In this document: piece after piece, positions 5,958 to 58,993 of the stretch | Layout: each line of letters begins with the position of its first letter | Numbering within the stretch: the stretch's first letter is position 1 | Virus record (IMG/VR): IMGVR_UViG_3300048762_000330 | DNA: 64,000 nt | Strand: one strand, 5' to 3' | From: a virus | Position numbers and translations under genes: made by a program | Notes under the pieces: model-generated | Database searches by the model: none | What the model was told of the DNA's origin: nothing | The model's input: the letters and a program-made list of their open reading frames with translations, nothing else

Positions 5958-7595
5958 TGTGCAAACATTCCAAATCGGATTATAACAAAGATTGCTTGTT
6001 GATGGATCACACGCCGCCCAATCAACTTCTGAGTTAGTCCCATTACCATTCACACATCCACCGGTATAAGGGATAAATCCCGATCCTGTTACTCCCGAAT
6101 CAATTAAGATTCCCACTTGATTGTTGGTTACATTCATTACCCCGATTGCTATATTGGTTAGAGGATCTGGATTCTTTTGAATATGGATTCCGTAACTATT
6201 GCTACTGATGCTTCTAATCAAACCAGTGTTAGGGTCAAGCGCAGAAATATAACTCAAAATTCCCTGATGCATAATGATTCCGGTTCCGCCGCCTCCCGTC
6301 GAACTGGCTATGTGGTTTATAATTGAGTTCCCTTTCAATGCGGTTGAATGCCCATCTATCTCGATAGCATCCACTCCTAAGTCTGGTGTAACCGGGCAGG
6401 AATATCCTGACAGTTGTCCTGATACTCCATTGACGGTTTGAATAATTCCCGTTGCTGGAGTTATTTGTTTATATCCGTTAAGATAGTTACCGTCAATTTC
6501 TACTTTGGAAGCAGAATTCCAAACCGTTAGTTGTCCACCTGGAACTCCATCAGGCTGCTCGTATCGGTTTCCGAGAAATTGATTTCCTGTAATATCGCCC
6601 CATCCACTCATAGTAACACCAGCCGTCCCGTTAAAATTCAAATTACTATTTGCAACGACAACATACCCGTCATTTAAACTACCATTTAAAACCCCATTAG
6701 TTCCACCTTGTATGCCGGTTGTTCTTGCGCTAAACACAGTTGAATTAAGTACAGAGCCGGTGTAGATTCGAACCGCACTTCCGGGAGAATTAATCACTTC
6801 TACATTTTGTAAGAAGGCGTAACTCGCATTACCAAAATCAACATCCCAATTAGCGTAAGCATCGCCGTTGTTAAGAGCACAACCCCAATAAGTTGGTTGG
6901 TCGAAATGAAATGCAAACCTATTTCCATCTATTGTAAGATTTTGTATTCCAACATTTGTGACACCCGCACTGGCGTTCACTACATTGTTTATTTGCTCAT
7001 TGTGACGTTGAATTGTAGTTGCCCATGGAGAATTACTCGAACCTGTCAAAATATAATTTGACTTTGTGAATGTGAGAGGTACATCTGTTGGATATGGAAC
7101 TCCTTGTGCTAAGATGCAATATGTCATTCCATTTGATACATTACCAGGAAGAATTCCAGATAAACAATTTTGTATTGAATTCAAATCGGAATAAACTGTT
7201 CCATAAATTTTACATGCTGCTGGACTTTTCGCATCTGTCATATTGGCATAGTTAGTTACCGTTGTCAATATTTGTGGTCGAAGCGTAGCGAGAAATTGTT
7301 GTGCCACGGTGGTTGTAAGTGTCACACGTTGTGGAACGGTTGCTTTTCGTAGTTGTTGAACAGCAGCGTCTAATGCAGCAACTTCAGTTGAATTAAGTCC
7401 AAATTGCTTCGTATAGCCGTCTTCCATAATGGTGACGAGAGAAGGCACCCAATGTGGATTGGACAAATTTGTGAAAGTGGAATATAGGTAGCTGCATGGT
7501 AACGTATTAGATTGTATTGGTTGTGCCAGACGCTTTGGCGTTTTACCCGGCAGCAGAATCATGAAAATGGTCAGCAATAAAATAAGTTTTCGCAT
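5952..7595 (-). CDS. secreted right-handed beta-helix (pectin-lyase-like) repeat protein
   Basis: signal-peptide-like MRKLILLLTIFMILL; N/G/I-rich beta-helix repeats (IQNLTIDGN, ITGNQF, IDGNYL); start sits 5 nt after CTAAATA. Confidence 0.65.
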   Translation of the reverse strand: MRKLILLLTIFMILLPGKTPKRLAQPIQSNTLPCSYLYSTFTNLSNPHWVPSLVTIMEDGYTKQFGLNSTEVAALDAAVQQLRKATVPQRVTLTTTVAQQFLATLRPQILTTVTNYANMTDAKSPAACKIYGTVYSDLNSIQNCLSGILPGNVSNGMTYCILAQGVPYPTDVPLTFTKSNYILTGSSNSPWATTIQRHNEQINNVVNASAGVTNVGIQNLTIDGNRFAFHFDQPTYWGCALNNGDAYANWDVDFGNASYAFLQNVEVINSPGSAVRIYTGSVLNSTVFSARTTGIQGGTNGVLNGSLNDGYVVVANSNLNFNGTAGVTMSGWGDITGNQFLGNRYEQPDGVPGGQLTVWNSASKVEIDGNYLNGYKQITPATGIIQTVNGVSGQLSGYSCPVTPDLGVDAIEIDGHSTALKGNSIINHIASSTGGGGTGIIMHQGILSYISALDPNTGLIRSISSNSYGIHIQKNPDPLTNIAIGVMNVTNNQVGILIDSGVTGSGFIPYTGGCVNGNGTNSEVDWAACDPSTSNLCYNPIWNVCTK

Positions 7596-7658
7596 GACCA
7601 TATTTAGAAAGCCCTTGACGGCCATTAAAAAATGTGCTATAATAAAAATAGGAGCATT

Positions 7659-7892
7659 ATGACCGGAAAAGATTTGTGGACGATCTTCGATGAAGAGTGC
7701 CGAAAAGACGGTACGATAGCGCTGTTGTTCGGTGTGGAATTTTCCATTGCCAATGGCCGCAGCATCGAACGAAGCGGCCCGCCTGAAGATTTGACGCTGT
7801 GGAATACGATTGCTGCTCGGTTGGAGCGTGGTACAATTGATACCATTGTAGATGTGCTGAAGAAAAAACGAGAAGGATTGCGGCACGCTTGA
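7659..7892 (+). CDS. hypothetical protein
   Basis: GGAG RBS; TTGACG/TATAAT promoter upstream. Confidence 0.6.
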   Translation: MTGKDLWTIFDEECRKDGTIALLFGVEFSIANGRSIERSGPPEDLTLWNTIAARLERGTIDTIVDVLKKKREGLRHA

Positions 7893-7902
7893 AGTGTGCT
7901 TT

Positions 7903-9000
7903 ATGAAAACACTACTCTTCATATGGCTGGCACTGAGTGTACACGCACAGAGTACAACCGAAATTGTACGTCGTGTGAACAATTATTTCAGTATGGATTT
8001 TACGGTGGTAGCAATTCCCGACATCCAAAACCTCGCACAATATTATCCATCGACCTTGAACACGATGATGCAAGCCATCGTGAATAATTCCACAACATGC
8101 GCCGCACCATTCTGTCCTGCGAGCGGACAATGGAACATCGAAGCGGTTTTAGGCGAAGGAGATAATGTCAACGCTACAGATACGGCGCAAATGACTGTTT
8201 CACAGACCGCATGGAATTACATTGCGGCTTCGAATATTCCGTTTTTGATAGCAATCGGAAATCATGACTATGATAATATTTCGGAGCGTAACACAACCAC
8301 CTTTGACAAATTTTTTGGACCGTCATATTATGCTGCTCATTTTTGGTATGGCGGTGGATTCCCTGCCAATTCAAACGCAAATTCATATGCACTTGTCACT
8401 CTTGGCGGCTATCCTTTCGTCCTTCTCAGCATGGAGTTTTATCCACGTTGCACAGCGACGGGAATATTTGCAACTGTGTGCGCCGGATCGACAATAGCTG
8501 TTGACGCTGATGCTGCATCGTGGGCCGAAGGAGTTTTGACCGCAAATAGTGAGCGACAAGCCATTATTGTGACTCATGCATACTTGGATTCTTGGCCCGA
8601 CACCCACAGAATGGACGATTCCGATCCTACTGTCTTTGGGGTTGCTGGTCCCAATTGGCTTAACGGCGTAGAGATGAATAGCACGATTGTGCAGCATAGT
8701 AGTGTTGCGCTTGTAGTGAACGGACATTTTCCAAATGCTTCTTACAGCGCCCATATAGCTCCCCAAGAAACAAACTCGGTGGGAGCGCTGGTATCAGAAG
8801 TTTTCAGCAATTATCAAAATGACATGGCTAATAGTTGGATTGCGTTGTTCAAATTTCGCCCTTCATTGGGCCAAATCGAAGTCTACCATTACTCCGTAAG
8901 CCTTGCAGGATTCGATCCAAATTTTCCGATGTACACGTTGCAATGGAATCCGAAAAGAAACCGGATGGCGGTAGAGAGACCAAAAGACCGGATGAGATAA
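7903..9000 (+). CDS. secreted calcineurin-like metallophosphoesterase
   Basis: signal peptide; PDIQ, GD..N, IGNHDYD, THAYL and NGH motifs. Confidence 0.8.
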   Translation: MKTLLFIWLALSVHAQSTTEIVRRVNNYFSMDFTVVAIPDIQNLAQYYPSTLNTMMQAIVNNSTTCAAPFCPASGQWNIEAVLGEGDNVNATDTAQMTVSQTAWNYIAASNIPFLIAIGNHDYDNISERNTTTFDKFFGPSYYAAHFWYGGGFPANSNANSYALVTLGGYPFVLLSMEFYPRCTATGIFATVCAGSTIAVDADAASWAEGVLTANSERQAIIVTHAYLDSWPDTHRMDDSDPTVFGVAGPNWLNGVEMNSTIVQHSSVALVVNGHFPNASYSAHIAPQETNSVGALVSEVFSNYQNDMANSWIALFKFRPSLGQIEVYHYSVSLAGFDPNFPMYTLQWNPKRNRMAVERPKDRMR

Positions 9001-9631: not shown

Positions 9632-9654
9632 TTTTATTAAGTATAAATACTTGC

Positions 9655-10236
9655 ATGGAAAATGCAAATTTCATAATATCCACTCAATACGACGGAAAAC
9701 CTCGTAAACTTTACCGCCATCTGTGTTTGATATGTGATGTGGAATTTTGGGTTCCACGTCATAAAAAAAAGTTATGCTGCTCGCTTACCTGTCGTGGAAA
9801 AGCTAAAACAAAAAATCAAACTGTAATTCTTATTTGTACAAGATGCGGAATTGAATTTCACAAACGACAAAGCAGTTTAGTTAACAGCAAACATCAAAAA
9901 TTTTTTTGTTCAAGAAAATGTAAAGATTTAGCTCAAAGATTAGATGGTGATTGTCCAGAGATCAGACCTTCGCATTACGGAACCGGAACTGGGATTCATG
10001 GATATCGTTTAATAATGGCAAAAGAAATTAAAGATGGATGCATTGATTGTCATGAAACACAATCATATTTTTTGGAAGTTCATCATATAGATGGAAATCG
10101 AAACAATAACGCAAAATCTAATTTGGAGGTTGTTTGCGTGAAAGATCATCGTCGCCGTCATTTACAATTTATAAAGGACACATGGAATTTTAGTTCCCAT
10201 GTGTTAACACCCCGTGAAAATCTGGCTGAAGTTTGA
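9655..10236 (+). CDS. HNH endonuclease with N-terminal zinc-ribbon repeats
   Basis: CxxC...CSxxC repeats; C-terminal CIDC...LEVHHIDGNRNNN...NLEVVC..DH. Confidence 0.85.
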   Translation: MENANFIISTQYDGKPRKLYRHLCLICDVEFWVPRHKKKLCCSLTCRGKAKTKNQTVILICTRCGIEFHKRQSSLVNSKHQKFFCSRKCKDLAQRLDGDCPEIRPSHYGTGTGIHGYRLIMAKEIKDGCIDCHETQSYFLEVHHIDGNRNNNAKSNLEVVCVKDHRRRHLQFIKDTWNFSSHVLTPRENLAEV

Positions 10237-10268
10237 CATTTTCCGCTCCGTATGCTAAACTAAAAGGT

Positions 10269-10808
10269 ATGAAACTCAGAACTGGATTTGTAAGCAACTC
10301 TTCAAGCAGCAGCTTTATTGTCGCATTCTCCGTCCTTCCAAAGACGAAAGAAGAACTTCAAGCTATGCTTTTCGGAGACGAAAAAGTTTATCCTAATCCG
10401 TACATTTTTAATGCCAATGATACGTATGGCTGGACTGCCGAAGAAGTTACCGCAACTGTATGGGCCGATTTGTTTTCCTCAACCAATTCAAAAAGAACCG
10501 GCGTCATTTCCCGTGAAGAAGCCATTGAAGTGGGAATATCTGGTTACCTAGAAGGTGCAGAACGCCCGGAGATGCCGTCTTTCAATCGCAATCGCTCCGA
10601 TAAAGAACGGGCAAAAGATTGGGACGAATATCAAGAACAATGGAATCGTGCCAACGGGAAAGTCATGGAAGCTTTTCTCGCTAGAGTTCCAGAAGGACAC
10701 ATTCTGACTCATTTTGAGTACTGCGACAATGATGGTGATTACTTTCAAGCCTTGGAGCATGGTCCGTTGTTTCGAAATCTCCAAAGTCTTCGTGTCAGCC
10801 ACCACTAG
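10269..10808 (+). CDS. MKLRxGFVSNSSSSSF-motif protein (paralog 1)
   Basis: N-terminal motif shared with four genes at 59.2-61.6 kb. Confidence 0.75.
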   Translation: MKLRTGFVSNSSSSSFIVAFSVLPKTKEELQAMLFGDEKVYPNPYIFNANDTYGWTAEEVTATVWADLFSSTNSKRTGVISREEAIEVGISGYLEGAERPEMPSFNRNRSDKERAKDWDEYQEQWNRANGKVMEAFLARVPEGHILTHFEYCDNDGDYFQALEHGPLFRNLQSLRVSHH

Positions 10809-11312: not shown

Positions 11313-11464
11313 CGCTGATTAACTGTTGGCGTATCACTTTCGTATTATTCCTGCTAGGCGTGCTCTTTTCCTGGATGCAATGCAAAGCCATTGCCAACAT
11401 ATTCAGCGACATTGGTGGCATAGCTTTCATACTATATCATGGGTTGGTGGAGATGAATGCCTAA
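11309..11464 (+). CDS. small membrane protein, tandem paralog of the preceding gene
   Basis: [19 protein letters not shown] matches NCWRITFILLLIGAFFSCM; not in the ORF track (51 aa). Confidence 0.5.
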
Positions 11465-11672
11465 AGAAGACGCCATCGAAATGATCGGAATTGTAAAAGA
11501 GAAATTTCCCAGTGGAATGTTCTCCGTGGATTGCGCTGGTCGGATCATCCTCGCAACATTATCTGGTAAGCTTCGTATGAACCGAATACGAATATTGGTA
11601 GGAGATAAAGTGACAGTTGAGCTTTCGCCGTATGATTTAACAAAAGGTCGTATTTCGTTCAGACACAAATGA
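11457..11672 (+). CDS. infA: translation initiation factor IF-1
   Basis: KEDAIEM.G.V...P...F.V...[38 protein letters not shown]. Confidence 0.95.
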
Positions 11673-13575: not shown

Positions 13576-14259
13576 CTACGGTGTTACAGAGAACGATAAT
13601 CGATAATTTTGGTTCCTTTGCCGCCCATTCCGTTGCAAGTGTGGCATATGATCGTATTCCATGACATAAAGTCGTCCTGTCTGTGGATTTATAGGAAATT
13701 CTGACTCATGCTTTTTGCAACAAAGACATTTGTTGCCATATTTTTCTTTTAAGTCAATTCGTTCTTGTGCTGTGTTGAACCCTTCAGCTTGCGCTCGGTG
13801 GGCACGAATTTTGATTTGCCCAGTTCGCCGGATCTCTCGCCACTTTTCTGGATTGGCTATTGCCCATTTTCGACTTTGATTACGTTTCTTTTCTGCATTG
13901 GCAAGATAATATTTTCGACTGTATTCAAGTTTCTTTTCTATATTGGCTTGATAATATTTTCGAGCATTTTCATAGTATTTTTCTGGATTGGCTTGCCGCC
14001 ACTTTCTAGTTTGTTCACAAACTTTTTCTGGATTTGCTTGATATCGGTTTCGTCCCTGTTCACAAACCCTTTCTCGATTCGCTTGATACCATTTTCGAAG
14101 ATACTCGCATTTCTTTTTGGAATTTTTTTGTGTCCATTTTTGATTTTGTTTGCGATCACAAGCAATACACTTTTTACTGCTTGTATACCTTTTTGGTGAC
14201 CCGCACTTCCGACATGGTTTTCCTTCAAAAAATTTTGGTGATAAATTGTCTTCAGACAT
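13576..14259 (-). pseudogene. repeat-HNH element copy 1, HNH core deleted and frameshifted
   Basis: Zn finger + 7 repeats; after EYDH the VVPLSKGGTNWISNIQPL segment seen in paralogs is missing, and GGKGTKIIDYR lies in another frame. Confidence 0.8.
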
Positions 14260-14330
14260 GACGGTACGCTCCGTTGTGTTTAGGCTGTATTGTGAAGCTC
14301 ATTACTTCACATACAGCCGTTTGTATTTAG
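14260..14330 (-). promoter_or_regulatory. HNH element leader (late promoter + hairpin + RBS hairpin)
   Basis: CTAAATA-CAAAC-GGCTGTATGTGAAG..CTTCACAATACAGCC-TAAACACAACGGAG..CCGTC-ATG. Confidence 0.85.
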
Positions 14331-14358
14331 CATCTATATAAAACCAGGAGTGTGTTAT

Positions 14359-14964
14359 ATGTCGAAATTTTCTGAAGCGATTCCATTCATTTTAAAACAT
14401 GAGGGTGGGTTAGCCGGGCCAACCCCGGCTGGTGAGTACGTGAACATGGGCATCAATACCGATACCCTAATTGCACTCGGTTATAAAGGTACAAAGGATG
14501 AACTGGAAGAAATTATAAAAAATCTCACAATAGAGCAGGCAGTAGATATTTACCAAAAATATTACTGGACTTTTAAAGCACCAAGTATTCCCAATGCTTT
14601 AGATTTGATCCAATCTCAACCTGTAGGCGGAAAGATCCTAGACATGACCGTTCTAAGCGGTCAGCGCACTGCTATAAAGTTGGTACAGCGTGCTGCTAAT
14701 CTCCCGGAGAACGGATACTTCGATCAGGGCACCTTGGATACAGTGAACGGGCTAGGAGACGGCTTTGTGCAGGCATTGATCGCCACCTGGACGGCTTCGC
14801 TGTCATCCATTGCAGATCAAAAAATTGCAGCAGCACAAGCACAGAAAGTTGCAGCCGAAGCCAATAATGACGAAGCTGCTGTAAAGGAAGCCACTACATT
14901 AATAGTCTATTGGACTCGTGTGAAATTGGGCTGGCTTAATCGGGCTGCTTGGACAGGAGTATAA
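14359..14964 (+). CDS. glycoside hydrolase family 108-like lysozyme (endolysin candidate)
   Basis: FSEAIPFILKHEGG...NMGI...LT.EQA..IY..YYW, then AIKLVQRA peptidoglycan-binding-like segment. Confidence 0.7.
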   Translation: MSKFSEAIPFILKHEGGLAGPTPAGEYVNMGINTDTLIALGYKGTKDELEEIIKNLTIEQAVDIYQKYYWTFKAPSIPNALDLIQSQPVGGKILDMTVLSGQRTAIKLVQRAANLPENGYFDQGTLDTVNGLGDGFVQALIATWTASLSSIADQKIAAAQAQKVAAEANNDEAAVKEATTLIVYWTRVKLGWLNRAAWTGV

Positions 14965-14971
14965 TTACATT

Positions 14972-15634
14972 TTAGGTTCTATAATCAATAATTTTAGTTC
15001 CTTTGCCGCCCATTCCATTGCAGATATGGCATAAAGGTTGAATATTTGAAATCCAATTAGTTCCAAGTTTTTGATTTGGACAACAGCAGACTTTATAATT
15101 TTTACTACACCACTGACAAACTGAAAGTGGAACTATGTGATCTCGTTCCATTACATAACATCGTCCTGTTATTGGATTTATAGGAAATTCTGATTCGTGT
15201 TTTTTACAACGAAGACAATGATGCCCATAACATTCGTTAAGATCAATCCATTGTTTTGTTGAGTGATATCCTTCGGCGTTTTTTCGTCTGGCACGATTTT
15301 TTATTCCTGATGTTCGTGTACTTTCACGATACTTCTTTGTATAAGATTGAATCATCTCAGAATTTGATTGTCGCCATTTTCGATGAATTTCATAACACTT
15401 TTCTGGATTTTCTTGTTGCCATTTTCGACTTTTTTCACAAACCTTTTTAAAATTTGATTGATACCATTTTTGACTACGTTCATGACACTTTTCTAGATTT
15501 TTTGTACTCCATTTTCGAATGCGCTCACGACTACAATTAACACATTTTTTGTTGTTAATATACCTCATCAATCCATTACACTTCTTGCATGGTTTTCCTT
15601 CAAAATATTTGGATGATAAATTATTGTTAGACAT
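14972..15634 (-). CDS. repeat-HNH element copy 2 (intact)
   Basis: EGKPCKKC...CVNC; 15-aa repeats; ERDHIVPLS...GTNWISNIQPLCHIC; ends IIDYRT. Confidence 0.85.
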   Translation of the reverse strand: MSNNNLSSKYFEGKPCKKCNGLMRYINNKKCVNCSRERIRKWSTKNLEKCHERSQKWYQSNFKKVCEKSRKWQQENPEKCYEIHRKWRQSNSEMIQSYTKKYRESTRTSGIKNRARRKNAEGYHSTKQWIDLNECYGHHCLRCKKHESEFPINPITGRCYVMERDHIVPLSVCQWCSKNYKVCCCPNQKLGTNWISNIQPLCHICNGMGGKGTKIIDYRT

Positions 15635-15706
15635 TGCGCTCCAAAGGCAGTGCTTTGTTTAGGCTGTATGCGAACTAGAACTTCACATGCAGCCGTTTCT
15701 ATTTAG
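15635..15706 (-). promoter_or_regulatory. HNH element leader
   Basis: CTAAATA-GAAAC-GGCTGCATGTGAAG..TTCGCATACAGCC-TAAACAAAG. Confidence 0.85.
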
Positions 15707-19244: not shown

Positions 19245-19855
19245 AGATCAATTGGCCGATGTTCCCCACCCAAATGCCAAGTTGTGCGTTGGAGAAGAGA
19301 AATCCCTGACGGTAGACGAAATCAAGGAAGCCAATGAAATTATAGGCCGCATGTTTACAGATCGAAACCGGCTTGGCCAGATTTTTCATACCGCTCGTAA
19401 ACGGGCACTTGTTTGCCGTCAGATTTTAGGATTTTGATGCAGCATCGTTTTTGCTATTGACACAGGACTTGGAAGTGTGCTATCCTGAAAGCATGATGAC
19501 GGTAGAGCAATTTCCGATGATCCTGGCCGATCCAAAAGCAGCCAGCCTGTTATCCAAAATTCTCGACGTGTTGAATCCTGCCATTGAAGCCGGGTCCATT
19601 CTTGGACCTTTCAATCTCAACAGTGAATACTGGAAGAGAATATGATACTCCTGAAATTCCTTTTATGGGCGGGCTTCTTTTTGGTGGCCTGTATGATAAC
19701 AGCGCCATTCACAAAGCGGGAAAGTAGCTTTCTATACTTTCCGGTGCTTGGTATTAACACAATCGCCTTCTTTGCGTTCCTGATTTGCCTTTGTGGATTC
19801 GCCTGGAATCTTGTCGTAGTATGCTGGCGCTTTATGATTTCGTAGAAAGTAACTC

Positions 19856-22314: not shown

Positions 22315-22404
22315 GGACGAATGGGTGAGTCTGGTTAAAACCAATTGCCTGTAAAGCAATCCTCCTTCGGGAGTACAAAGGTTCAAATCCTTTTTCGTCC
22401 ACCA
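22315..22404 (+). tRNA. tRNA-Tyr(GUA) 1
   Basis: GGACGAA/TTCGTCC + ACCA; ATTGC-CTGTAAA-GCAAT; long variable arm with TTCG loop; TTCAAAT. Confidence 0.95.
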
Positions 22405-22414: not shown

Positions 22415-22503
22415 GGCGCATTAGACCGCTAAGGAGACGGCACCCGCTGTAACCGGGTTGTCCTTTATGGACCCGAGAGGTTCGATACCTTTATGCGCCA
22501 CCA
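22415..22503 (+). tRNA. tRNA-Tyr(GUA) 2
   Basis: GGCGCAT/ATGCGCC + ACCA; ACCCG-CTGTAAC-CGGGT; long variable arm; TTCGATA. Confidence 0.92.
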
Positions 22504-22835
22504 AATTCTTTACCAAATATTGATTATATTTGGGGTACAAAGTAAGAGTGGAGTTATTTTTTGGTTTGGGTAATAAAAATATTTGTCCATTTCCACAAAT
22601 GACAAATAGAAAATCATATTTGAGATCCAACCCACCTTTATGCACAAAATTTTTCTTGCTATTTCCGCCTTTTATACTGAGACCAACTATATAAAATCCA
22701 CTTTTAGATATTTGCGTCGTAGTCTTCACCTGGACCTTTTTCAAGCCATCTTCAAACTCCGCAACGAGATCGTAGTCCTGGCTGTCGGTCAACGGAATGC
22801 ATACCGGCATTCCTTGCGAACAGAGATATTCACGG
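22421..22835 (-). pseudogene. PD-(D/E)XK (group I intron-type) endonuclease, 5'-truncated
   Basis: YLCSQG.PVCIPLTDSQDYDLVAE...VQVKT...YDFLFV; N-terminus replaced by antisense of another gene; reads into antisense tRNA-Tyr2. Confidence 0.65.
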
Positions 22836-23074
22836 AAAAGCCGAAAGTGATGATCGAGCGTGGCGAAATGGCATCCGTCGCAATCCATTTGGTCGGAACA
22901 AAAGGACAAGAGATTGAAGACAACGACTACGAATCGATGGCAAAGATGGTTATCGATGCATTCAAAAAGCATCGGGAAGTAATGAAGGAGCGCTCCTTCG
23001 CACCAGCCACTATCGGCCCAAAGAATGTTCCTGCTCTTCAAGACCTTCGGAAAGCACAAATTGATGGAATGTAA
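22835..23074 (+). pseudogene. 3' fragment of a hypothetical gene
   Basis: protein-like TEKPKVMIERGEMASVAIHL... has no own start; upstream is antisense endonuclease. Confidence 0.4.
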
Positions 23075-23116
23075 GAATAGGCACAAAGCTATTTAGTTTT
23101 TCGACTAAATACCATT

Positions 23117-25141: not shown

Positions 25142-25213
25142 GATGGCTAACTCCATTGTGTTTAGGCTGCATTGCGAAGGTAAGAACTTCACATGCAGCC
25201 GTTTCTATTTATA
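25142..25213 (-). promoter_or_regulatory. HNH element leader
   Basis: TATAAATA-GAAAC-GGCTGCATGTGAAG..CTTCGCAATGCAGCC-TAAACACAATGGAG. Confidence 0.85.
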
Positions 25214-26977: not shown

Positions 26978-26995
26978 GATTGTATTTATGCAAAA

Positions 26996-28571: not shown

Positions 28572-28639
28572 GACGGGCACTCCGTTGTGTTTAGGCTGCT
28601 TGAGAAGGTCACACTTCCCATGCAGCCGTTACTATTTAG
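28572..28639 (-). promoter_or_regulatory. HNH element leader
   Basis: CTAAATA-GTAAC-GGCTGCATGGGAAG..CTTCTCAAGCAGCC-TAAACACAACGGAG. Confidence 0.85.
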
Positions 28640-29276: not shown

Positions 29277-29321
29277 ATATCAAGGGCTAAATATCTTGAT
29301 GAACCGGAAGTAAATGACAAT

Positions 29322-42548: not shown

Positions 42549-43153
42549 ATGTTTGCCGCAATCAAAGTTATCTTCAAACTTCTGATGGTGATTTTGTTTT
42601 TGTGGCTGCTGGTGAATGGTCTCTATCTCTGTATGCTGCACTTCACGCCCATGAAACTTTTTTGATGCATCTATTGACATTCGAGTTCTGTTGTGGTATC
42701 CTTAAATCATGACTGGAATGACATTAAAACAGTTTGCAGCCGTTCAATTCTACGCCGCTTTGGACAACTACCGTTTACGGCTTGACAAAAACAACGATTG
42801 GAGGGAGAATAGCAAATGGACAGAGGGCCGCTAGCTTTAGGCCAACAGCCCTCCGCATGGCACTACCATCGCAAGCTGGTGGTGCTGGTGACTCTACTGC
42901 GTCCACCATGGGCCACAGCGACCGGTCGCTCAAAGTCAGCGCTGTGGTCCTTCCGGTTTCGGCCTCAACCGTCGGTGAACTTGAACGGTAGAGGCTATTA
43001 CTCTCGGTGGGTTTGCGACGACTGCAAATCAGCCAGCGAAAATCTGGTAGACTTCAAGCATGAGCCGGGATGTAAACACGCATGATAATCATAGGAAACA
43101 TTCTCAGTGTTGTTTTCCTTGCGGTAGCCGGTTATTGGTAGGAATCGCCGGGG

Positions 43154-44232: not shown

Positions 44233-44784
44233 TCATACAATGGCTTGTTTCATGATCTGATCGGCTTCGTTGTCCACTTGACTCACAAATTTTTTATCTA
44301 GCAGCCGAATGGTGCGTTTCGCTTCATTGGCAGCAACTTCTGCATCATAGATCATAACCACGCTACGCTCAGATGCGGGTAGATGTAAGTAGGTGGTTTC
44401 GTCAATCGGATTGCCCCACTTATCTTCATAATGGTCAACGGTTTGATAAGCGTATACAAGTCCATCTCGAATAGATGTACTATATTTTTTCTGAATTGTG
44501 GCGATGAGATCGTCTTGATTCATCGGCCAATCATACACCGGATCAACGATGTTGTTTGCAAGAAGTACCAACCAATGATATTGGCTTGAGCCATACAGCT
44601 TGTCAGCAATGATTTCCGGCGTGTCGTTTTCTTTTATTTGATATGTGTAAAACACAAGATAATCGTTGATTAAAATGTCCCGCATTTTAATTCGTTGGAG
44701 AATGTTAACAGCAATGGTCTTCTGTCCATCACCATTGATATCGTATCCCAAAAGTTGAAATTTGCTAAAGAAAGGATTAGGCAC
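44233..44784 (-). CDS. baseplate wedge protein (T4 gp53-like, LysM-like)
   Basis: FFSKF....Y; YQIKENDTPEIIADKLYGS..YHWLVLLANNIVDP.YDWP; CTAAATA-N5-GTG. Confidence 0.8.
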   Translation of the reverse strand: MPNPFFSKFQLLGYDINGDGQKTIAVNILQRIKMRDILINDYLVFYTYQIKENDTPEIIADKLYGSSQYHWLVLLANNIVDPVYDWPMNQDDLIATIQKKYSTSIRDGLVYAYQTVDHYEDKWGNPIDETTYLHLPASERSVVMIYDAEVAANEAKRTIRLLDKKFVSQVDNEADQIMKQAIV

Positions 44785-45325
44785 AAAACTATTTAGAACC
44801 AAAAGATACATCTGTCGAAGCAACTTGACAGTTTTCGGAATGCGTGCGATGATAGAAAGTATGTTGGACAAATATCGTGAGGTTGAAGACCATTTTGAAT
44901 GTGTGAAATGTGGAGCCATCATTCTCGCAGCTACGGTTGCCCATCCAATATGGGACGGACCATTTCCTTGTTCTGGTAGCGGCCAGTGTCAATACGAAGA
45001 TGTCCATATTGTCCCACATGCGAGAAAGTGCCTTCTTACAACGGGCGTCCCATTACAATTCCATTCACTTTAACACACATGATGAAGACGGAGCCAAAAC
45101 TCTGTCGCCGGAAGACGAAGCAATCTGGAACTCTCAATTACACGCTGGTGGATTTGTCGCTCATCAACTTGATTCTAAACACGGAAAGGGGTTTTATAAA
45201 TTGATGGATGCTATTTTGTCGTATGAAGATACCTTTCGAGACGGAAAATATCACTCCACGGATGAAGTGCTTGCCGCATTGTTGGAATTGATTCGTGTTG
45301 GTTTGGTGCGCTACGAGGTTGTGCC

Positions 45326-47535: not shown

Positions 47536-47860
47536 TATGTTCGATCAAAACGAACCCGATATTTTTGGAGATGCGGAACGGCTTCATGAAAGTGAACCCT
47601 TTCAAGAAGTACAAAACGATTTTTCTAAAATTTCGGAAGAAGAATTTTTATATCGCTACAAAGCTACTAAGTTGCAATACCAAATTATCTTCACTGCTAT
47701 CCAAGAACTTCATAAAGTTAATGAAGTTCTCTCTGAAATGGGAGCACTCTCCATTGATCCTGAAATCGTAGAAAACACAACTTTACTAATTGAAGATTAT
47801 GCTCAGTTACTTGAACAAATGAATTCATCAAACTACTGGTATAATGAAGAAAATCGATAA
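47528..47860 (+). CDS. hypothetical acidic protein
   Basis: its stop lies inside the end of the convergent HNH element. Confidence 0.55.
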   Translation: MTNMFDQNEPDIFGDAERLHESEPFQEVQNDFSKISEEEFLYRYKATKLQYQIIFTAIQELHKVNEVLSEMGALSIDPEIVENTTLLIEDYAQLLEQMNSSNYWYNEENR

Positions 47861-48525
47861 TCTATCTGCGATCCGGTTTTTAAATAATGATGCCAATTTT
47901 TTCTGTTGCATGGAAAACACAAAGGTTGAATATTAGTAATGTAATCTGTGCCGCCTCTTGAAAGTGGAATGATATGATCTGGTGTTAAATGTCTTTCCGC
48001 TATATTAAGACGAGTTGCTAATTCTGATTCATGGACACCGCAATCCAAACATCGATTGTTATACTGTTCTTTTAGGTCGATCCAAGCTTGTGAAAGATAT
48101 GAACCTTCGGCTCCTGCTCGTTTGACCCGTTGACGATGCCCATATTCAAGACATTTTCCTGGATTATTTCGTTTCCACTTTCGGTGATTTTCAATATTCT
48201 TTTTTGAATTTATCTGTTGCCATAAAAGAGTCTGCTCGCATTTTTTTCTAGAATTTTTCTGATACCAGTTTTGATTTATGTTGCGTCTCTTTTCAGAGTT
48301 TTCTTTTGCCCATTTTTGTTTTTGTTTACTATGTTTTTCTTGATTAACTTTTGCCCACTTTCGTTTTGCTCCACAACTCTTTTCTGGATTATCTCGTGCC
48401 CATTCTTGACTCTGTTTGCGTGTGCAATTAACGCAATTTTTGCCGTTGACATATCTTTCTATTGATCCACACTTTACACAAGGTTTTCCTTCGTAATATT
48501 TTGGTGATAAATTATTTTCAGACAT
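47833..48525 (-). CDS. repeat-HNH element copy 5 (intact)
   Basis: MSENNLSPKYYEGKPC; TPDHIIPLSRGGTDYITNIQPLCFPCN; QIDYR + tail. Confidence 0.85.
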   Translation of the reverse strand: MSENNLSPKYYEGKPCVKCGSIERYVNGKNCVNCTRKQSQEWARDNPEKSCGAKRKWAKVNQEKHSKQKQKWAKENSEKRRNINQNWYQKNSRKKCEQTLLWQQINSKKNIENHRKWKRNNPGKCLEYGHRQRVKRAGAEGSYLSQAWIDLKEQYNNRCLDCGVHESELATRLNIAERHLTPDHIIPLSRGGTDYITNIQPLCFPCNRKNWHHYLKTGSQIDYRFSSLYQ

Positions 48526-48595
48526 GACGGGTCACTCCGTTGTGTTTAGGCTGCTTGCGAAGGTCAATACTTCACATGCAGCCGTTTGTATTTAG
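48526..48595 (-). promoter_or_regulatory. HNH element leader
   Basis: CTAAATA-CAAAC-GGCTGCATGTGAAG..CTTCGCAAGCAGCC-TAAACACAACGGAG. Confidence 0.85.
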
Positions 48596-48632
48596 CGCTT
48601 GACAAATCTTAATTCTATGGTTTAATAAAATT

Positions 48633-48944
48633 ATGACAAACACAAAACGACATCAATCAGAACTTGATAGAGTACAAACAAAGTACCACGAAGAAGATAG
48701 AGACCCTTGCACCACGGAAAAGGCAGAAGAAACCATAAGCATGACTCTAGATCGACTATTGGGAGAGTTAAGTGCCACTGCTCTTATGGTAGACGATCTT
48801 CGTGGCAAATCTTTTTCTGAAGGCGAAGCTAAAGCGGAAGCAAAGGATATTGAAAGCAACTGTCTTCAATCCCAGGCATGTCGTGCGGCAGCTAAAGCTA
48901 CAGAGATCAATCGCAGATTAAAATCAATTTTAGCTCGTCTGTAA
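48633..48944 (+). CDS. hypothetical coiled-coil protein
   Basis: sigma70 promoter TTGACA upstream; sits between two HNH elements. Confidence 0.55.
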   Translation: MTNTKRHQSELDRVQTKYHEEDRDPCTTEKAEETISMTLDRLLGELSATALMVDDLRGKSFSEGEAKAEAKDIESNCLQSQACRAAAKATEINRRLKSILARL

Positions 48945-49535
48945 ATGGTTACGAAAATTTATCTGTGCTCCAGTTTTCAAGTAGTGGTGCCAATTTTTTC
49001 TATTACAATCATGACATAACGGCTGTATGTTCCAAATCCAATTTGTACCTCCTCTTGAAAGCGGAACGATGTGATCTGGTTCCACTGGGCGCTGTCGTCC
49101 TGTTCTTGGATTTATAGGAAATTCTGATTTGTGTTTTTTGCAGTCAAGACAATGGTGCCCATATTGTTCGTTTAGGTCAACCCATTGCTTTGTGGAGTGA
49201 AAGCCTTCGGCTTGACGACGATTTGCTCGCTGTTTTGTTCTGGATATTCGCATACTTTCTCGATATTTTTCTGGATTGTTTTGTCTCCATTTTCTACTAC
49301 TTTCTTGATCTTTTTCTGAATTTTCTTGTTGCCAACTTTTAACTTTTTCTGGATTTTCTTTACGCCATTCATGAACTCTTTTACGAACTCTTTCTGGATT
49401 CACTTGATATGCTTGGTTAACATATTTGTGGGCACAATCAACACAACATTTACTTTTAACATACCTTTTTGTTGATCCACACTTCCGGCAAGGCTTCCCT
49501 TCATAAAATTTCGATGCTAAATTATCGTCAGACAT
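48930..49535 (-). CDS. repeat-HNH element copy 6 (intact, 4 repeats)
   Basis: MSDDNLASKFYEGKPC; EPDHIVPLSRGGTNWIWNIQPLCHDCN; QINFR + tail. Confidence 0.85.
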   Translation of the reverse strand: MSDDNLASKFYEGKPCRKCGSTKRYVKSKCCVDCAHKYVNQAYQVNPERVRKRVHEWRKENPEKVKSWQQENSEKDQESSRKWRQNNPEKYRESMRISRTKQRANRRQAEGFHSTKQWVDLNEQYGHHCLDCKKHKSEFPINPRTGRQRPVEPDHIVPLSRGGTNWIWNIQPLCHDCNRKNWHHYLKTGAQINFRNHLQTS

Positions 49536-49607
49536 TGCGCTCTCCAAAGTGCTTTGTTCAGGCTGTGTGCGAAGGTCAATACTTCACTCACAGCCGTCTC
49601 TATTTAG
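49536..49607 (-). promoter_or_regulatory. HNH element leader
   Basis: CTAAATA-GAGAC-GGCTGTGAGTGAAG..CTTCGCACACAGCC-TGAACAAAG. Confidence 0.85.
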
Positions 49608-49651
49608 CACTAACCAAACACTCAAACAAACGACCTTGAAGATATAAATAA

Positions 49652-50119
49652 ATGCAGGAAGATAAACTTATGTTGTCAAATTCGTATTACGCCAAATTTT
49701 TTGGGGATGCCCTTTTGAAAGAAATATTTCATCTAGACGAAGAGCTAACACAGGCAATTGCCACCAAACAAGACCCGGTAGTTGAAGATGAATTAGAACA
49801 CTCTTTGGATGTTGCTTTATCCGAAGCTGATGTTGAAGGCACTAAACTTTTGAGCGAAGCCAAGAAGCCTAAATACCACGTCTATTCGGCATATGGTGGA
49901 ACTCGGTTATCCTCACATCACTCTTTAGCAGCCGCCCACAAAGCTGCCGTTAAGCACAGCGATAAACAGCCAGTACATGTTTGGACCGCAACAGGCGGTG
50001 AATTAGGGATGGGTAAGCCGGTGGCTCATTATAGTAATGGGAAGAAAACTGTCTTTGAAGATGTGAAGTTTGAAAAAGATCTTGATTCTATGATGAAATT
50101 GATAATCGGTAATCAATAA
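49652..50119 (+). CDS. late acidic protein, possibly virion-internal
   Basis: TATAAATA upstream; LSEA motifs; last codons (IGNQ*) derive from the antisense HNH end. Confidence 0.55.
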   Translation: MQEDKLMLSNSYYAKFFGDALLKEIFHLDEELTQAIATKQDPVVEDELEHSLDVALSEADVEGTKLLSEAKKPKYHVYSAYGGTRLSSHHSLAAAHKAAVKHSDKQPVHVWTATGGELGMGKPVAHYSNGKKTVFEDVKFEKDLDSMMKLIIGNQ

Positions 50120-50670
50120 TTTTTGTTCCTTTATGTGCCATATCATTGCAAGTGTGGCACAACGGTTGTATGTTTGAAATCCAATTTGTTCCACCTTTTG
50201 AAAGTGGAACAACATGATCGTATTCCATTGAATGCGGTCGTCCTGTTCTTGGGTTTACGGGAAATTCTGACTCATGAATTTTACAACAAAGACATTTATT
50301 GCCGTACTTTTCTTTTAGGTCAATTCGTTCCTGTGCCGTGTTAAATCCTTCTGCTCCTGCTCGTCTTGCACGAGCTTTTATATTCCCATTTCGATGTAGT
50401 TCTCGATAGCGTTCAGGATTATTTTTCTTCCACTTTTGTTGTTTCTCAAATACTTTGTCCGGGTTGGCTTGATCCCACTTCCGATTATTCTTACGAACCT
50501 TTTCTGGATTTTCTTGTTGCCATTTTTTAACACTCTTATAATGTTTTTCTAAATTTGCTTGGACCCATTTTCGCTTCTGTTCACGATTCTTTTCTGGATT
50601 TGCTTGCACCCATTTCTGTTGTGATTCATGTTTCTTTTCTGGATTTTCTTGCGCCCATTTTTGAGCATTT
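50088..50670 (-). pseudogene. repeat-HNH element copy 7, 5'-truncated
   Basis: repeats + EYDHVVPLSKGGTNWISNIQPLCHTC + KGTKIIDYR; no Zn finger or leader. Confidence 0.75.
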
Positions 50671-51223: not shown

Positions 51224-51271
51224 CTTCATACATCTATTGACTTTTGAACTTAGATTTGGTACACTTGAGAC

Positions 51272-51586
51272 ATGGAAATACCTAATCTTTGTGATCGCAT
51301 CCTTTACGACGGTCATACTTACAGGGTCAATGGTTATCTCAAAACCGTTACCTTTGCTATTGCCCCTTTCGCAATAAACGGTGTCAATATCGTTGATGCA
51401 ACGACGGTTACCCGGCAAGTCTTTTGCAGCCGGGAAGAAGCCGAACTCGTTACCGCTGTTGGCGTTTGTGGCGTGCAAATACCTGTAAACGAAGCAGTTG
51501 TGGTTGGTCGAGTCGAATGGACCGATGCACAAATTGCTTGTGAAAAAGCGGACTATGCCCTGTTTATGGGACTCTTCGTTTTTTAA
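51272..51586 (+). CDS. hypothetical protein
   Basis: downstream of a TTGACT promoter. Confidence 0.5.
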   Translation: MEIPNLCDRILYDGHTYRVNGYLKTVTFAIAPFAINGVNIVDATTVTRQVFCSREEAELVTAVGVCGVQIPVNEAVVVGRVEWTDAQIACEKADYALFMGLFVF

Positions 51587-52266
51587 GGTACATCTATTGA
51601 CTTTTTGGTCGAAATCTGCTATTATGAAGCTGAAGGTATGAAAACCATGAAAACCAAGATTTGCGAAGTTTGCGAAAAAAGAAAACCGATCAACCAACTC
51701 AAATCGGGCCGCTATTGCGCTATGTTGGTCTGCGATACCTGCCGTGAAACCGCTGAACCCAATGAAGAATGGCCGGAAGAGTGGTCGGACGCCGAATAAA
51801 GTAGGTCATGAAAACCATTTTCAACAACGGCATTTTCTGGCGCTATCGTCCTGGTATCGTCTACACAGCGATGTATTACGGATGGAATATCAACATCCGT
51901 TTCATTCCTGCCCGCCACCCGGTAACTAAAAAAGCCGGATGCTGGCGGCTATTTGTGAGCAAGGGAATCGGCGGCGGGATCGGTCTTTCGTTTTCTCATC
52001 AATTTCACGAAACCATTGAAGCTGCACGCAAATATGGTAAAAAGCTAGTAGACGAAGCCAAATAAGATTTGATGCATCTATTGACTTCCGTTGCCGAAAT
52101 CTGGTAAGATAAAATTATGAAACTGACAAAAGACCAACGTGAGGATCTTCAAAGGACCCTCCAAGAAGACGAAGATCGGTTCTGCGACGAAGACGTAATG
52201 CGTGATCTTTGCCCAGAGCCGGATTTCGATGAAGATTACACCGAATTGGACAGGTGGTAACAACCC

Positions 52267-56288: not shown

Positions 56289-56694
56289 ATTATTCGGTTG
56301 GTGGTTAATGGAGTCAGATCAGATAGGACTGAATTGTACAGACCCCGGATATTTCAGAAACGGGGAAACAGACACATTCCCAGTTTGTCCTACTTGGTTT
56401 AACACCAACAAAGAGGCTAAAGAAGCAGCACAAACGATGGGATTTGATGTGGTTGAAAGGTTATGTGATACACGGAGGCAGAAGGCAACGATGATCAATT
56501 CAGAAACGATACTTGGAAATTTTGATGGGCATCATGGAGCAACCATCAAAGACCACATAAAGTGGTTAGAATCTGAACTAACTCCTCCTTATGCAGAGGT
56601 CTGCAATAGTGAAGAAGGCAGGTATGTCGTGTCTTGCTACCTACAACTATGTAAGCTTGTTGTATCGCAGCAGGACTAAATACAAATATAAAGC

Positions 56695-57225
56695 ATGTCT
56701 TTCAAAAAACCGTATCAAAAACAGCAATTCAACCCCAACCTAAACACCGGCATTCGTGCAAGAGAATTACGAGTAATTTTCCCGGATGACACTCATCAAA
56801 CACTACCAATCTCAACCGCTCTCCAATCAGCGAAGAACATCGGATTAGATCTTGTTTTAATAGCTCCCAATTCCGTCCCACCAGTGGCTCGCATAATTGA
56901 CTACAACAAGTATTTGTATCAACAAAAAAAGCAGAAACAGCAGGCAAAAGCAAACCAACATGTCACGAAAGTAAAGGAGCTTAAGTTTTCTCCTAACACT
57001 GATGAACACGATTACAATTTCAAAAAAGCCCACGCAATTGAATTTCTCAAAGACAAAAACAAATGCAAGGTTGTCGTTCAATTCCGAGGTAGAGAAGTAG
57101 TTCACGCTAATCTCGGTATCGCATTACTCAACCGGCTGCTGGCTGATCTCGATGCGGTTGGTAAAGCAGAGTTCCCGCCAAGACAAGAAGGCAAATCAGC
57201 ATTTGTCTTGGTAGCGCCAAAATGA
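56695..57225 (+). CDS. infC: translation initiation factor IF-3
   Basis: N..IRARELRVI; A...GLDLVLIAPNSVPPVARIIDY.KY.Y; KELKFSP.TDEHDY.FK...A..FL; FRGRE. Confidence 0.95.
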   Translation: MSFKKPYQKQQFNPNLNTGIRARELRVIFPDDTHQTLPISTALQSAKNIGLDLVLIAPNSVPPVARIIDYNKYLYQQKKQKQQAKANQHVTKVKELKFSPNTDEHDYNFKKAHAIEFLKDKNKCKVVVQFRGREVVHANLGIALLNRLLADLDAVGKAEFPPRQEGKSAFVLVAPK

Positions 57226-57443: not shown

Positions 57444-57975
57444 ATAAGGATGGAAATTTGAAACTACACTTTGATTCGTGGCGCACCTTCTAAACTCTCA
57501 CCACACTCCGGGCAAATTAGCGTATCTGACGTGACCGGAGGTAATAAGCACATCATACAATGTGGTTTCTCAGAGCCACACTTACAAAGCACAAAGCGCT
57601 TACAATCTGATTGTAGCGTGCAGTAACCGTGAGAAATGCATTCATTCATACATTACCTCCAAGATGTTCAAAAGTGAGCAGGAAGCACGTGCCTTTGCCA
57701 CATGTTGGGCATGTCCATTCTTGGTCTTTGATGAGCTTTGGTGGAACTATGATATCAAGTTCAATCAAGCATAACGCCATCATCCGCTCTCTAAAATCAT
57801 CGTCCATATGTCTTCAATTTATTTACAATGTGTGTTGGCACTGTCACTGTTATTGGAGAACCGATTACAATTCCATTCTTTACATAAATTGTTCCGCTTA
57901 CAATTTGAGATGCTTGAATTGATTGAAAAAATTGGTTTATCCGCTTTATTTTTCCTACATAAGTCAAATTAGACA

Positions 57976-58260
57976 TTAAAATCCCAACCAACTATTGATC
58001 TCAGTTTCAGCCTGAAGCGCATTAACAAACAAAATTCCGATACCACCGTTTTTTATCCAATTGGCGATATTTCGATCCATGTCATCAACCAGCATGTTGC
58101 CTGCCGCATGAAGCACTTTATCACGTTTGCGTAAGACGATCAGACGATTCTCTTTCGCAATCCAAGGTGTCTCACGTTCAAGCCATTCGAGCTTTTGTTC
58201 TTTATGATGTACTTTGTCGAATTTTCCATGAAAAAGCTTCATGGTAAAATCGCCGTGCTT
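57976..58260 (-). pseudogene. C-terminal half of a second HAD nucleotidase-like gene
   Basis: QKLEWL...K...A...MLVDD..RNI.NW...GG.GI; N-terminal DxD motif absent. Confidence 0.55.
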
Positions 58261-58444
58261 CCCGGAGATTTTGACATCGAAATAGCACCGTCTAACAAAG
58301 CGCATTCCAAGGAGCAGTAGATGTATGGAGGATCAATATACTGTGTTCCACGTTCTGTGTACGGGTCCTCAAAATGCCGCCTTCTTTTACCACAGTCAGC
58401 GTATTTACAAGGTCTTTTTTCTTCCTTCTTTTCTGCCATATCTT

Positions 58445-58993
58445 TTATTTTACCACAGTTAGCCGGTCAAGTAGATTTTCAAAATCCTGTTGCAAGTCTG
58501 GCTGCTTGAATTTTCCATCACCCATCACGAAAGCAAACGAAATTGCGAATAGCTCATCATATTGATATTGAAAACCCGAATGTGAGAATGAATACTTCCA
58601 CTCACCAAGTTCAATCCAAAGATAGCGAGTACCGGTCTGTTGCTTCAACCATTCATGAGATGGACGACATGCAACTTTGATCCGATCTAGCAACGGTTTG
58701 ATAGTACTTTCAATAAAGTCTTTGTCAGTGTGGGTCAAAATTTCGTGTCCCAATTCATGAAAAAAGTTCTCGATACTATCACCGGGCCGCATCGCAATAA
58801 TTCCATCGGGAGAATTGGTTTCAATTTCGTAGGAATGTTTGAATTGTTTGCTATTAAGTTGCACCCATTTGATATGACTCCATAATCCAAATCGTGCCGC
58901 CGCCGCTTCCACTGTTTTAGGTGGTCTGACATCCGGTAACCCGGCGTAATATTCCAGCGGGTACTCGATAATAAACTGAGCGAATGTAATCAC
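58445..58993 (-). CDS. late protein with HExxH motif and capsid-targeting-like N-terminus
   Basis: CTAAATA-N5-GTG; MITFAQFIIE; FFHELGHE; ELFA.SF. Confidence 0.65.
   Translation of the reverse strand: MITFAQFIIEYPLEYYAGLPDVRPPKTVEAAAARFGLWSHIKWVQLNSKQFKHSYEIETNSPDGIIAMRPGDSIENFFHELGHEILTHTDKDFIESTIKPLLDRIKVACRPSHEWLKQQTGTRYLWIELGEWKYSFSHSGFQYQYDELFAISFAFVMGDGKFKQPDLQQDFENLLDRLTVVK

Follow-up and report, generated by a model that had tools for sequence, protein, structure and literature searches.

Can a giant phage place its promoters so close to its genes that transcription begins on the start codon itself, and, if so, do the initiation factors that the phage carries make such messages readable? 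Both questions are raised by a stretch of 64,000 nucleotides (nt) from IMG/VR record IMGVR_UViG_3300048762_000330, referred to here as the window. The window is a portion of an uncultured giant phage whose own contig is ~69 kb and which has a syntenic complete relative of 405 kb. A sequence-only reading had proposed that the late genes of this phage are leaderless, with a T4-like late motif exactly 5 nt before the start codon, and that initiation factors 1 and 3 (IF-1 and IF-3), both phage encoded, shift translation toward these late mRNAs. The fusion of promoter motif to start codon is observed, not only at the late TAAATA sites that had been pointed out but also at TTGACA-type promoters beyond them. 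From sequence and comparison we infer transcription start sites, timing classes, and translation mode, and we consider it likely that promoters of both classes are fused to start codons to give mRNAs that are leaderless or have leaders of 1 to 7 nt, with IF-1 and IF-3 not the basis of the design.

Promoter motifs placed at start codons

The late motif, [CA]TAAATA, occurs 38 times in the window, compared with 20.9 +/- 4.5 times in dinucleotide-preserving shuffles (n = 100), none of which reaches 38. Thirty of the 38 copies are intergenic, and noncoding DNA makes up ~21% of the window on a rough gene map. When the 0 to 60 nt after each copy were scanned for start codons that open an open reading frame (ORF) of at least 60 codons, 7 of the 38 copies had such a start at a spacing of exactly 5 nt, where 0.33 would be expected at any one spacing (Poisson P = 6e-8). 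Every other spacing yielded at most 2, except for spacing 53, where the excess is due to paralogous leaders of HNH endonuclease genes. None of the 17 copies of [TG]TAAATA in the window has a start at spacing 5.

Where would transcription begin? The T4 late promoter, TATAAATA, spans -13 to -6, and the variant in phage Aeh1, CTAAATA, begins at -12 (PMC1524935). With these positions, the sixth base after the motif would be +1, and this base is a purine in 32 of the 38 copies. The resemblance to T4 late promoters suggested earlier thus holds against the published T4 and Aeh1 motifs, and it supports the view that (C/A)TAAATA behaves as a T4/Aeh1-type late promoter whose positions relative to +1 follow theirs. 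The motif precedes virion genes, among them a gp53-like baseplate wedge subunit (PF11246, phrog_232) and a virion structural protein (phrog_12660). We saw no upstream element shared by the late motifs of the window; the TGTCAAG found near some of them is the reverse complement of divergent TTGACA -35 hexamers.

At the seven sites on which the leaderless proposal was built, the motif, the 5-nt gap, and the ATG or GTG are all as described, leave no room for a Shine-Dalgarno sequence, and open real genes. On the plus strand, ATAAATA (9643-9649) precedes ATG 9655 of a 193-amino-acid HNH endonuclease gene (9655-10236), CTAAATA (23105-23111) precedes GTG 23117 of a 160-amino-acid gene (23117-23599), and CTAAATA (34975-34981) precedes ATG 34987 of the gene for the virion structural protein (34987-35250; 87 amino acids). 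On the minus strand, CTAAATA (7601-7607) precedes ATG 7595 of a 547-amino-acid gene (5952-7595) with a signal-peptide-like N terminus, MRKLILLLTIFMILL, and no family match; ATAAATA (26983-26989) precedes ATG 26977 of a GP88-family gene (25217-26977; 586 amino acids), for which a public gene call gives the same start; CTAAATA (44790-44796) precedes GTG 44784 of the gp53-like gene (44233-44784), identified by Pfam and PHROG profiles; and CTAAATA (58999-59005) precedes GTG 58993 of a 182-amino-acid gene (58445-58993). All seven are predicted to be leaderless late genes.

Several of these sites carry local evidence about the start. Both gp53 profiles align from residue 5 of the 44784 product, so that GTG 44784, rather than an upstream ATG of a longer ORF, is the start. 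The start at 23117 lies back to back with a second CTAAATA (23090-23096, minus), which stands 5 nt before GTG 23084; the 32-bp gap between the divergent starts contains both motifs and therefore leaves little room for upstream leaders. A 24-codon remnant ORF (23010-23084, minus; VPILTFHQFVLSE...) begins at the predicted +1 of that second motif. The N-terminal pattern M/V-x-(S/T)-F-x-Q-F stands at the start codon of 23117 [(M/V)LSFGQFLSE, which resembles the T4 capsid-targeting sequence], of 58993 [(M/V)ITFAQFIIEYP], and of the 23084 remnant, and it also opens the CCA-adding enzyme and many orthologues. Finally, a terminator-like hairpin (-17.7 kcal/mol) with a TTTTTT run (34941-34974, plus) abuts the CTAAATA of 34987, making read-through leaders unlikely; the hairpin at 34941-34969 was confirmed by folding, although the automated terminator scan had not flagged it.

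At fused genes, only 5 to 6 nt separate the promoter element from the start codon, which excludes a Shine-Dalgarno sequence. Clear AGGAG or GGAGG sites are present at many other genes of the window, and the host ribosome must therefore use them; the missing ribosome-binding site at fused genes is thus a real contrast. Base composition after the start codon is the same for the predicted leaderless genes and for other genes.

A second line of evidence comes from leaders that do not begin with a start codon. The sequence-only reading had placed +1 on the first G of the hairpins that lead nuclease genes, and this geometry is borne out: in eleven stem-loops (-16 to -22 kcal/mol), the first paired base lies exactly 6 nt past a late motif, that is, at the predicted +1. 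The hairpins thus provide a separate indicator of where the 5' end lies. Three unrelated nuclease families, as well as one gene of another kind, have them as leaders. On the plus strand, they lie at 34418-34442 (promoter 34406-34412; leader of gene 34482-34928), 59021-59055 (-20.7 kcal/mol; promoter 59009-59015), and 60137-60171 (-20.3 kcal/mol; promoter 60125-60131). On the minus strand, three lead HNH genes, at 25165-25200 (promoter 25206-25212), 48549-48583 (promoter 48589-48595), and 49561-49595 (promoter 49601-49607); one leads a T5orf172-domain gene, at 4113-4143 (promoter 4149-4155), and one a zinc-finger nuclease-like gene, at 33754-33787 (promoter 33793-33799); the others are at 14283-14318 (promoter 14324-14330), 15662-15694 (promoter 15700-15706), and 28594-28627 (promoter 28633-28639).

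Is the fusion a property of late genes? In the host-type class, (catcta)TTGACw, 16 to 18 nt, TAnnnT, 5 of 30 window sites have an ATG at exactly 6 nt. The sigma-70 -10 hexamer occupies -12 to -7, so that +1 is 7 nt past its last base, and an ATG at a spacing of 6 nt would again begin at +1. The five sites, all on the plus strand, are an early TTGACA-N18-TATACT (1148-1177) before ATG 1184 (gene 1184-1528) and early-type TTGACA-N18-TATCCT (19457-19486) before ATG 19493, (catcta)TTGACA-N17-TATCCT (42674-42702) before ATG 42709, (catcta)TTGACT-N17-TACACT (51237-51265) before ATG 51272 (gene 51272-51586), and (catcta)TTGACT-N18-TAAGAT (52081-52110) before ATG 52117 (gene 52117-52260). An early-type TTGACA-N17-TAAACT (10233-10261, plus) stands 7 nt before ATG 10269 (gene 10269-10808) and probably also drives the operon that contains infA. 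PHROG profiles align from residue 10 of the 1184 product and from residue 1 of the 10269 product, supporting these starts. Thus, two independent promoter classes of different geometry would each have +1 on the start codon. The proposal of leaderless late genes stands with respect to promoter geometry and to the reality of the genes, some of them structural; what does not stand is the restriction to late genes, as early promoters are fused too.

In the model that we favor, the phage would use two promoter classes: a host sigma-70-type early class, (catcta)TTGACw, 16 to 18 nt, TAnnnT, and a T4/Aeh1-type late class, (C/A)TAAATA, which would be read by a gp55-like late sigma factor. For roughly one in four copies in either class, transcription is predicted to begin on the A or G that opens the start codon, which lies 5 nt past the late motif or 6 nt past the early -10 hexamer. 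The resulting mRNAs, opening with AUG or GUG or carrying leaders of 1 to 7 nt, would be loaded directly on ribosomes via the leaderless pathway. Other late promoters would put a stabilizing 5'-terminal hairpin at the same +1, followed by an ordinary Shine-Dalgarno sequence, and many of the remaining genes would rely on ordinary Shine-Dalgarno sites. Because the early genes share the design, the host translation machinery would be able to read leaderless mRNAs unaided.

Conservation of the fusion among relatives

If the fusion matters to the phage, is it kept by its relatives? The window itself had no match among INPHARED phages and none, by exact word, among IMG/VR contigs. Related phages were gathered through matches to the GP88-like and IF-3 proteins; the clade is also present in Logan run SRR35911405 and in JGI samples 3300086552 and 3300072490. 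The complete relative, G002 (IMG/VR contig UViG_3300050821_002957; 405,631 bp; CheckV completeness, 100%), is collinear with the window across ~55 kb, with protein identities of 35 to 74%. A pooled set comprised the window and the contigs L010, L011, L013, and L014 (146 kb in total), and a complete 202-kb phage, G001, served as a control; it encodes gp55 (E = 2e-59) and is otherwise unrelated, its tie to the clade being one GP88-like protein (37% identical) and no other link.

In the pooled set, 24 of 103 late TAAATA sites have a start at spacing 5, 7 at spacing 6, and at most 5 at any other spacing, and 12 of 46 early-type sites have one at spacing 6. The complete relative shows the same design on a larger scale. 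Its late motif is followed by a start codon at spacing 5 in 32 of 112 copies (25 ATG and 7 GTG), with 7 more at spacing 6 and ~1.2 expected per spacing (Poisson P < 1e-30), and 37 of its 134 early promoters have a start at spacing 6. Its fused start codons number 33 ATG and 8 GTG in the late class and 36 ATG and 1 GTG in the early class, and the fusions account for ~64 of 528 rough genes (12%). TTG is absent from the recorded fused starts, both in the complete relative (0 of 40 late and 0 of 37 early) and in those listed for the window and five relatives (0 of 48), as expected if the first base is the initiating purine. In the control phage, starts lie 21 to 38 nt after TATAAATA, and 0 of 65 early promoters have a start at spacing 6. 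Distant GP88-like relatives in IMG/VR (L001 to L008) show no fusion; they have ordinary leaders with Shine-Dalgarno sequences.

Individual genes tell the same story. In L010 and L011, the orthologues of 34987 are still fused, with a spacing of 5 or 6, and those of 58993 have GTG at spacing 5 (L013) or ATG at spacing 6 (L014). The gp53 orthologue in the complete relative is preceded by TAAATA, 5 nt, and ATG. Among early genes, 1184 keeps its fusion in the complete relative, with GTG, and 19493 keeps it in L010 and L011. Flanking DNA has diverged around orthologues that retain the fusion. The fusion has also been gained and lost: the CCA-adding enzyme gene is fused (GTG, spacing 5) in L010 and L011 and leadered in the window, and the GP88-like gene is the opposite, being fused in the window and not in L010 or L011. 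In L014 and L108, whose IF-3 is 74% identical, late fusions are mainly at spacing 6 (TAAATA, five bases, C or G, and ATG), which implies that, in this sublineage, the leader is 1 nt long or the start site has shifted.

In T4, gp55 reads the late promoters together with gp33 and the gp45 clamp. A gene for the gp55 late sigma factor is present in the complete relative (321996-322520; phrog_234, E = 1.3e-54). This genome also has 44 tRNA genes, a transfer-messenger RNA gene (tag ANAPAFAFAAAA), and IF-3 and has no IF-1; a second, weak gp55-like match (5353-5586) carries a TAG stop.

Several observations weigh against the reading that we favor. A phmmer search with T4 gp55 against the window and the fragments of its closest relatives gave nothing below E = 0.8, as expected given that these cover only part of the genome, and the C-terminal domain of the gp45 clamp (PF09116) was not found in the complete relative at E <= 0.01. 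Each predicted +1 takes its position from the promoter geometry of T4, Aeh1, and E. coli. Fused starts are no less structured than others, with the folding energy of the first 30 to 50 nt giving P = 0.29 to 0.48 for the comparison. GUG is found at one third of late fusions; as a leaderless start codon, it performs poorly in E. coli and Caulobacter, although it works in actinobacteria (PMC9031893). Lastly, further upstream promoters giving leadered transcripts are conceivable at most sites.

Competing explanations and the role of IF-1 and IF-3

How exact is the predicted start? It is possible, though we consider it unlikely, that the promoters are real and transcription begins a few bases away, or at extra upstream starts, so that the leaders are short (1 to 10 nt) or mixed. 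The spacing is indeed not fixed: 6 dominates in L014 and L108, the CCA-adding enzyme gene of the complete relative has a spacing of 4, leaders of 4 to 7 nt are predicted at infC (56695) and at genes 61872 and 16606, and early-type sites also occur at 7 to 9 nt. Against this stand the sharp peaks in the complete relative, with 32 late sites at one spacing versus at most 7 at others and 37 early sites versus at most 7. These single-spacing peaks, together with the eleven hairpins that begin at the same base, argue for selection on exact position. Moreover, leaders of 1 to 7 nt cannot contain a Shine-Dalgarno sequence, and the mRNAs would be translated as leaderless-type messages in any case.

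Do the phage initiation factors explain the design? Both genes had been reported from the sequence, and both are genuine and canonical by Pfam match. infA (11457-11672, plus) encodes a 71-amino-acid IF-1 (PF01176, E = 1.5e-22) with a single S1-like OB domain and full-length alignment to solved IF-1 structures; it has a GGAG Shine-Dalgarno sequence and is apparently part of an early operon. infC (56695-57225, plus) encodes a two-domain, 176-amino-acid IF-3 (IF3_N, E = 9e-21; IF3_C, E = 4e-29; both domains exceed the Pfam thresholds) that aligns end to end with the IF-3 proteins of E. coli and T. thermophilus and has the hallmark residues Y75, K79, Y107, K110, R133, H137, and R147. The AUU start through which E. 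coli infC is autoregulated is absent, the gene starting with ATG at 56695; this start is a regulatory trait and does not define the family. CTAAATA (56676-56682, plus) lies upstream, with a predicted +1 at 56688 and hence a 7-nt leader without a Shine-Dalgarno sequence. For infC of the complete relative, the predicted leader is 5 nt; that of L013 is 31 nt long and includes a Shine-Dalgarno sequence. CTAAATA precedes infC in all three. IF-3 identity within the clade (window, L013, L014, L108, and G002) is 54 to 75%. The best cellular matches to IF-3 are from Acidobacteriota, and at 54 to 55% identity they are too distant for a host to be named.

The model advanced with the sequence-only reading was that these factors steer ribosomes to leaderless late mRNAs, for example, through a permissive IF-3 that displaces host IF-3. 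Parts of the evidence lean this way. IF-3 is kept across the clade, and infC stands behind a late promoter in the window, the complete relative, and L013. Clade IF-3 departs from its nearest bacterial group at several residues (E. coli numbering): it is without a basic residue at 115/116 and carries K in place of R168 and, in most members, of R131, and in the window copy S replaces R99; the equivalent positions in T. thermophilus IF-3, Arg91, Arg123, and Arg159, adjoin the start codon in 30S complexes (PMC5037330), and this codon-proximal location would suit such a role. Relaxed infC mutants boost leaderless expression in E. coli (PMC9031893), and the control phage, a single genome, lacks both the initiation factor genes and the fusion design.

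The evidence against this model is broader. Fusion to ATG is as frequent for early host-type promoters as for late ones, and ribosomes must therefore read leaderless mRNAs before any phage factor exists. The complete relative lacks IF-1 and nevertheless shows the whole design. The substitutions in IF-3 are likewise found in ordinary bacteria (G99 and K168 in Bacteroidales; K115-E116 in several phyla), and the hallmark residues are retained. In E. coli, leaderless translation is inhibited when IF-3 is raised (PMC9031893), and genes for IF-1 and IF-3 are common among huge phages, for which no leaderless programme is reported (PMC7162821). Nor does the phage appear to supply an initiator tRNA: the tRNA genes of the window are two, both tRNA-Tyr, and the sole tRNA-Met(CAT) of the complete relative has a paired 1:72 and lacks the GGG/CCC anticodon stem. 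With early genes fused too, IF-1 missing from the complete relative, and a canonical IF-3, the claim that the phage uses its own factors to shift translation to leaderless late mRNAs was not upheld, and we regard the model as improbable, more so than a start a few bases off.

A narrower variant can be formulated, to which we give a slightly smaller chance again: a late-made clade IF-3 (no basic residue at 115/116; R99S here, R131K, and R168K) could be a permissive factor that rivals host IF-3 and admits 5'-terminal AUG and especially GUG, opening a private channel for about one eighth of the genes. One candidate signature was tried and rejected: loss of R116 in IF-3 had seemed specific to the clade (12 of 12 clade sequences versus R in 103 of 108 others), and a wider set showed K115-E116 in many bacteria. 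As the same states occur in ordinary bacterial IF-3 proteins, the IF-3 signature is weak and is not relied upon here; a literature search on the roles of R116 and R131 of IF-3 found nothing usable. Most likely, the phage IF-3, which is conserved in the clade, and IF-1, which is not, belong to the general translation-support set of huge phages, although they may modulate initiation.

Could TAAATA act on the ribosome rather than on RNA polymerase? An A/U-rich translational enhancer or ribosome-binding element within longer transcripts would account for the distance from TAAATA to the start codon, which resembles Shine-Dalgarno spacing, and for the lack of a Shine-Dalgarno sequence at fused sites. 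We consider this very unlikely, given that the motif also precedes, at the same spacing, eleven hairpins that have no start codon at that point, corresponds to the published late promoter of T4 and Aeh1 in a clade whose syntenic member encodes gp55, is followed by a preferred purine at the sixth base, and in one copy adjoins a terminator, and given that a different element, the sigma-70 -10 hexamer, is fused in an equivalent way at a spacing of its own. Chance or gene-calling artefact, for which one could cite the commonness of short AT-rich motifs and the permissiveness of ORF lists, is effectively refuted by the Poisson probabilities in the window and the complete relative, the intergenic location of most motif copies, the profile and orthologue alignments that confirm starts, and the absence of a spacing peak in the control phage.

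Relation to known systems and neighboring features

How does the favored design, promoters of two classes fused to start codons, compare with what is known? With T4 and Aeh1 late promoters it shares the core motif, including the Aeh1 C at -12, and the lack of a conserved -35 element; as in T4, structural (gp53-like and virion) and homing-endonuclease genes are served, and a gp55 homologue is present in the complete relative. In T4 and in the control phage, however, the start codon lies 20 to 40 nt downstream behind a Shine-Dalgarno sequence, whereas ~29% of motif copies are fused in this clade; a further difference from T4 is that gp55 was not seen in the 64 kb of the window and the gp45 C-domain was not found in the complete relative. 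We found no report in the literature of T4-type late promoters fused to start codons.

Leaderless expression itself has precedents. For the Thermus phages phiYS40 and P23-45, the account in PMC3594737, citing Sevostyanova 2007, describes most middle and late mRNAs as leaderless, with host IF2 up and IF3 down. As presented there, these phages resemble the present case in that a phage-wide leaderless programme is discussed together with changes in initiation factors; they differ in having host -10-type promoters and a host phylum in which leaderless mRNAs are the norm and in altering host factor levels rather than encoding factors. In contrast to phiYS40, this clade fuses both early and late promoters, has a gp55-type late class, makes heavy use of Shine-Dalgarno sequences, and encodes IF-3 (and, in the window phage, IF-1).

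The lambda cI mRNA transcribed from PRM is the classic single-gene leaderless case. The likeness to it and to bacterial leaderless genes lies in a -10 element directly before the ORF and a transcript that opens with AUG, or with GUG as in actinobacteria. For Actinobacteria and Deinococcus-Thermus, leaderless mRNAs have the -10 region adjacent to ORFs (PMC12340547). Yet cI is one regulatory gene and the bacterial pattern a genome-wide host habit, whereas we appear to be dealing with a clade-specific design of giant phages.

Among giant phages, the initiation factor genes are like those described for huge phages (Al-Shayeb et al. 2020, PMC7162821) in being full-length, canonical infA and infC alongside tRNAs, the CCA-adding enzyme, and other translation genes. 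That work draws no tie to leaderless mRNAs, and here infC stands behind a late promoter with a predicted 5- to 7-nt leader in two members. phiKZ and AR9 are likewise giant phages in which early and late promoters form defined classes, but their transcripts are leadered, with no leaderless transcripts among the mapped 5' ends of phiKZ (PMC8244752) and 5' untranslated regions of 26 to 491 nt in AR9 (PMC5312081), and they have their own multisubunit RNA polymerases.

What would follow if 5' ends confirm the predicted starts? Leaderless expression on a large scale would then extend beyond Thermus phages and leaderless-rich host phyla, as a built-in design of a T4-related giant-phage clade assembled from host-type and gp55-type promoters. 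Gene finders that depend on a ribosome-binding site will misplace fused starts, for example, those at 7595 and 44784, which lie inside longer ORFs. The design also yields exact predictions of transcription starts for uncultured phages. It suggests that a share of phage mRNAs is independent of Shine-Dalgarno pairing and could resist nucleases or defenses that target leaders, and it poses a biochemical question: what is the role of the phage-encoded IF-3?

Several neighboring features touch on the promoters. The sequence catcta is conserved directly upstream of the TTGACw -35 hexamer at 42668-42673, 51231-51236, 51591-51596, and 52075-52080, as well as in L010, L011, L013, and L014, and may be a clade-specific upstream element. 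Promoters lie back to back at 4149-4190, where a minus-strand late ATAAATA stands beside a plus-strand TTGACA-N16-TATACT that overlaps a CTAAATA (4184-4190, plus); ATG 4197 is 6 nt from that late motif. Ahead of the CCA-adding enzyme gene (ATG 29322), CTAAATA is followed after 5 nt by a 4-codon mini-ORF (29287-29313, plus; ATG 29299, MNRK*).

Nuclease genes recur at these promoters. After the 23084 remnant, a PD-(D/E)XK endonuclease ORF (listed as 22421-23086, minus) follows in a different frame, and at 22421-23096 (minus) a nuclease gene seems to have captured an older gene's promoter and 5' end. A nuclease family with 4 to 8 tandem 45-nt (15-amino-acid) repeats is found at 13576-15634, 24344-25192, 27777-28580, 47833-50661, and 60185-60787, and all of its repeat-bearing genes are preceded by a late promoter and a 5' hairpin leader. 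Two tandem tRNA-Tyr(GTA) genes lie at 22315-22404 and 22415-22503 (plus), the second overlapping the 3' end of the opposite-strand ORF at 22421-23086.

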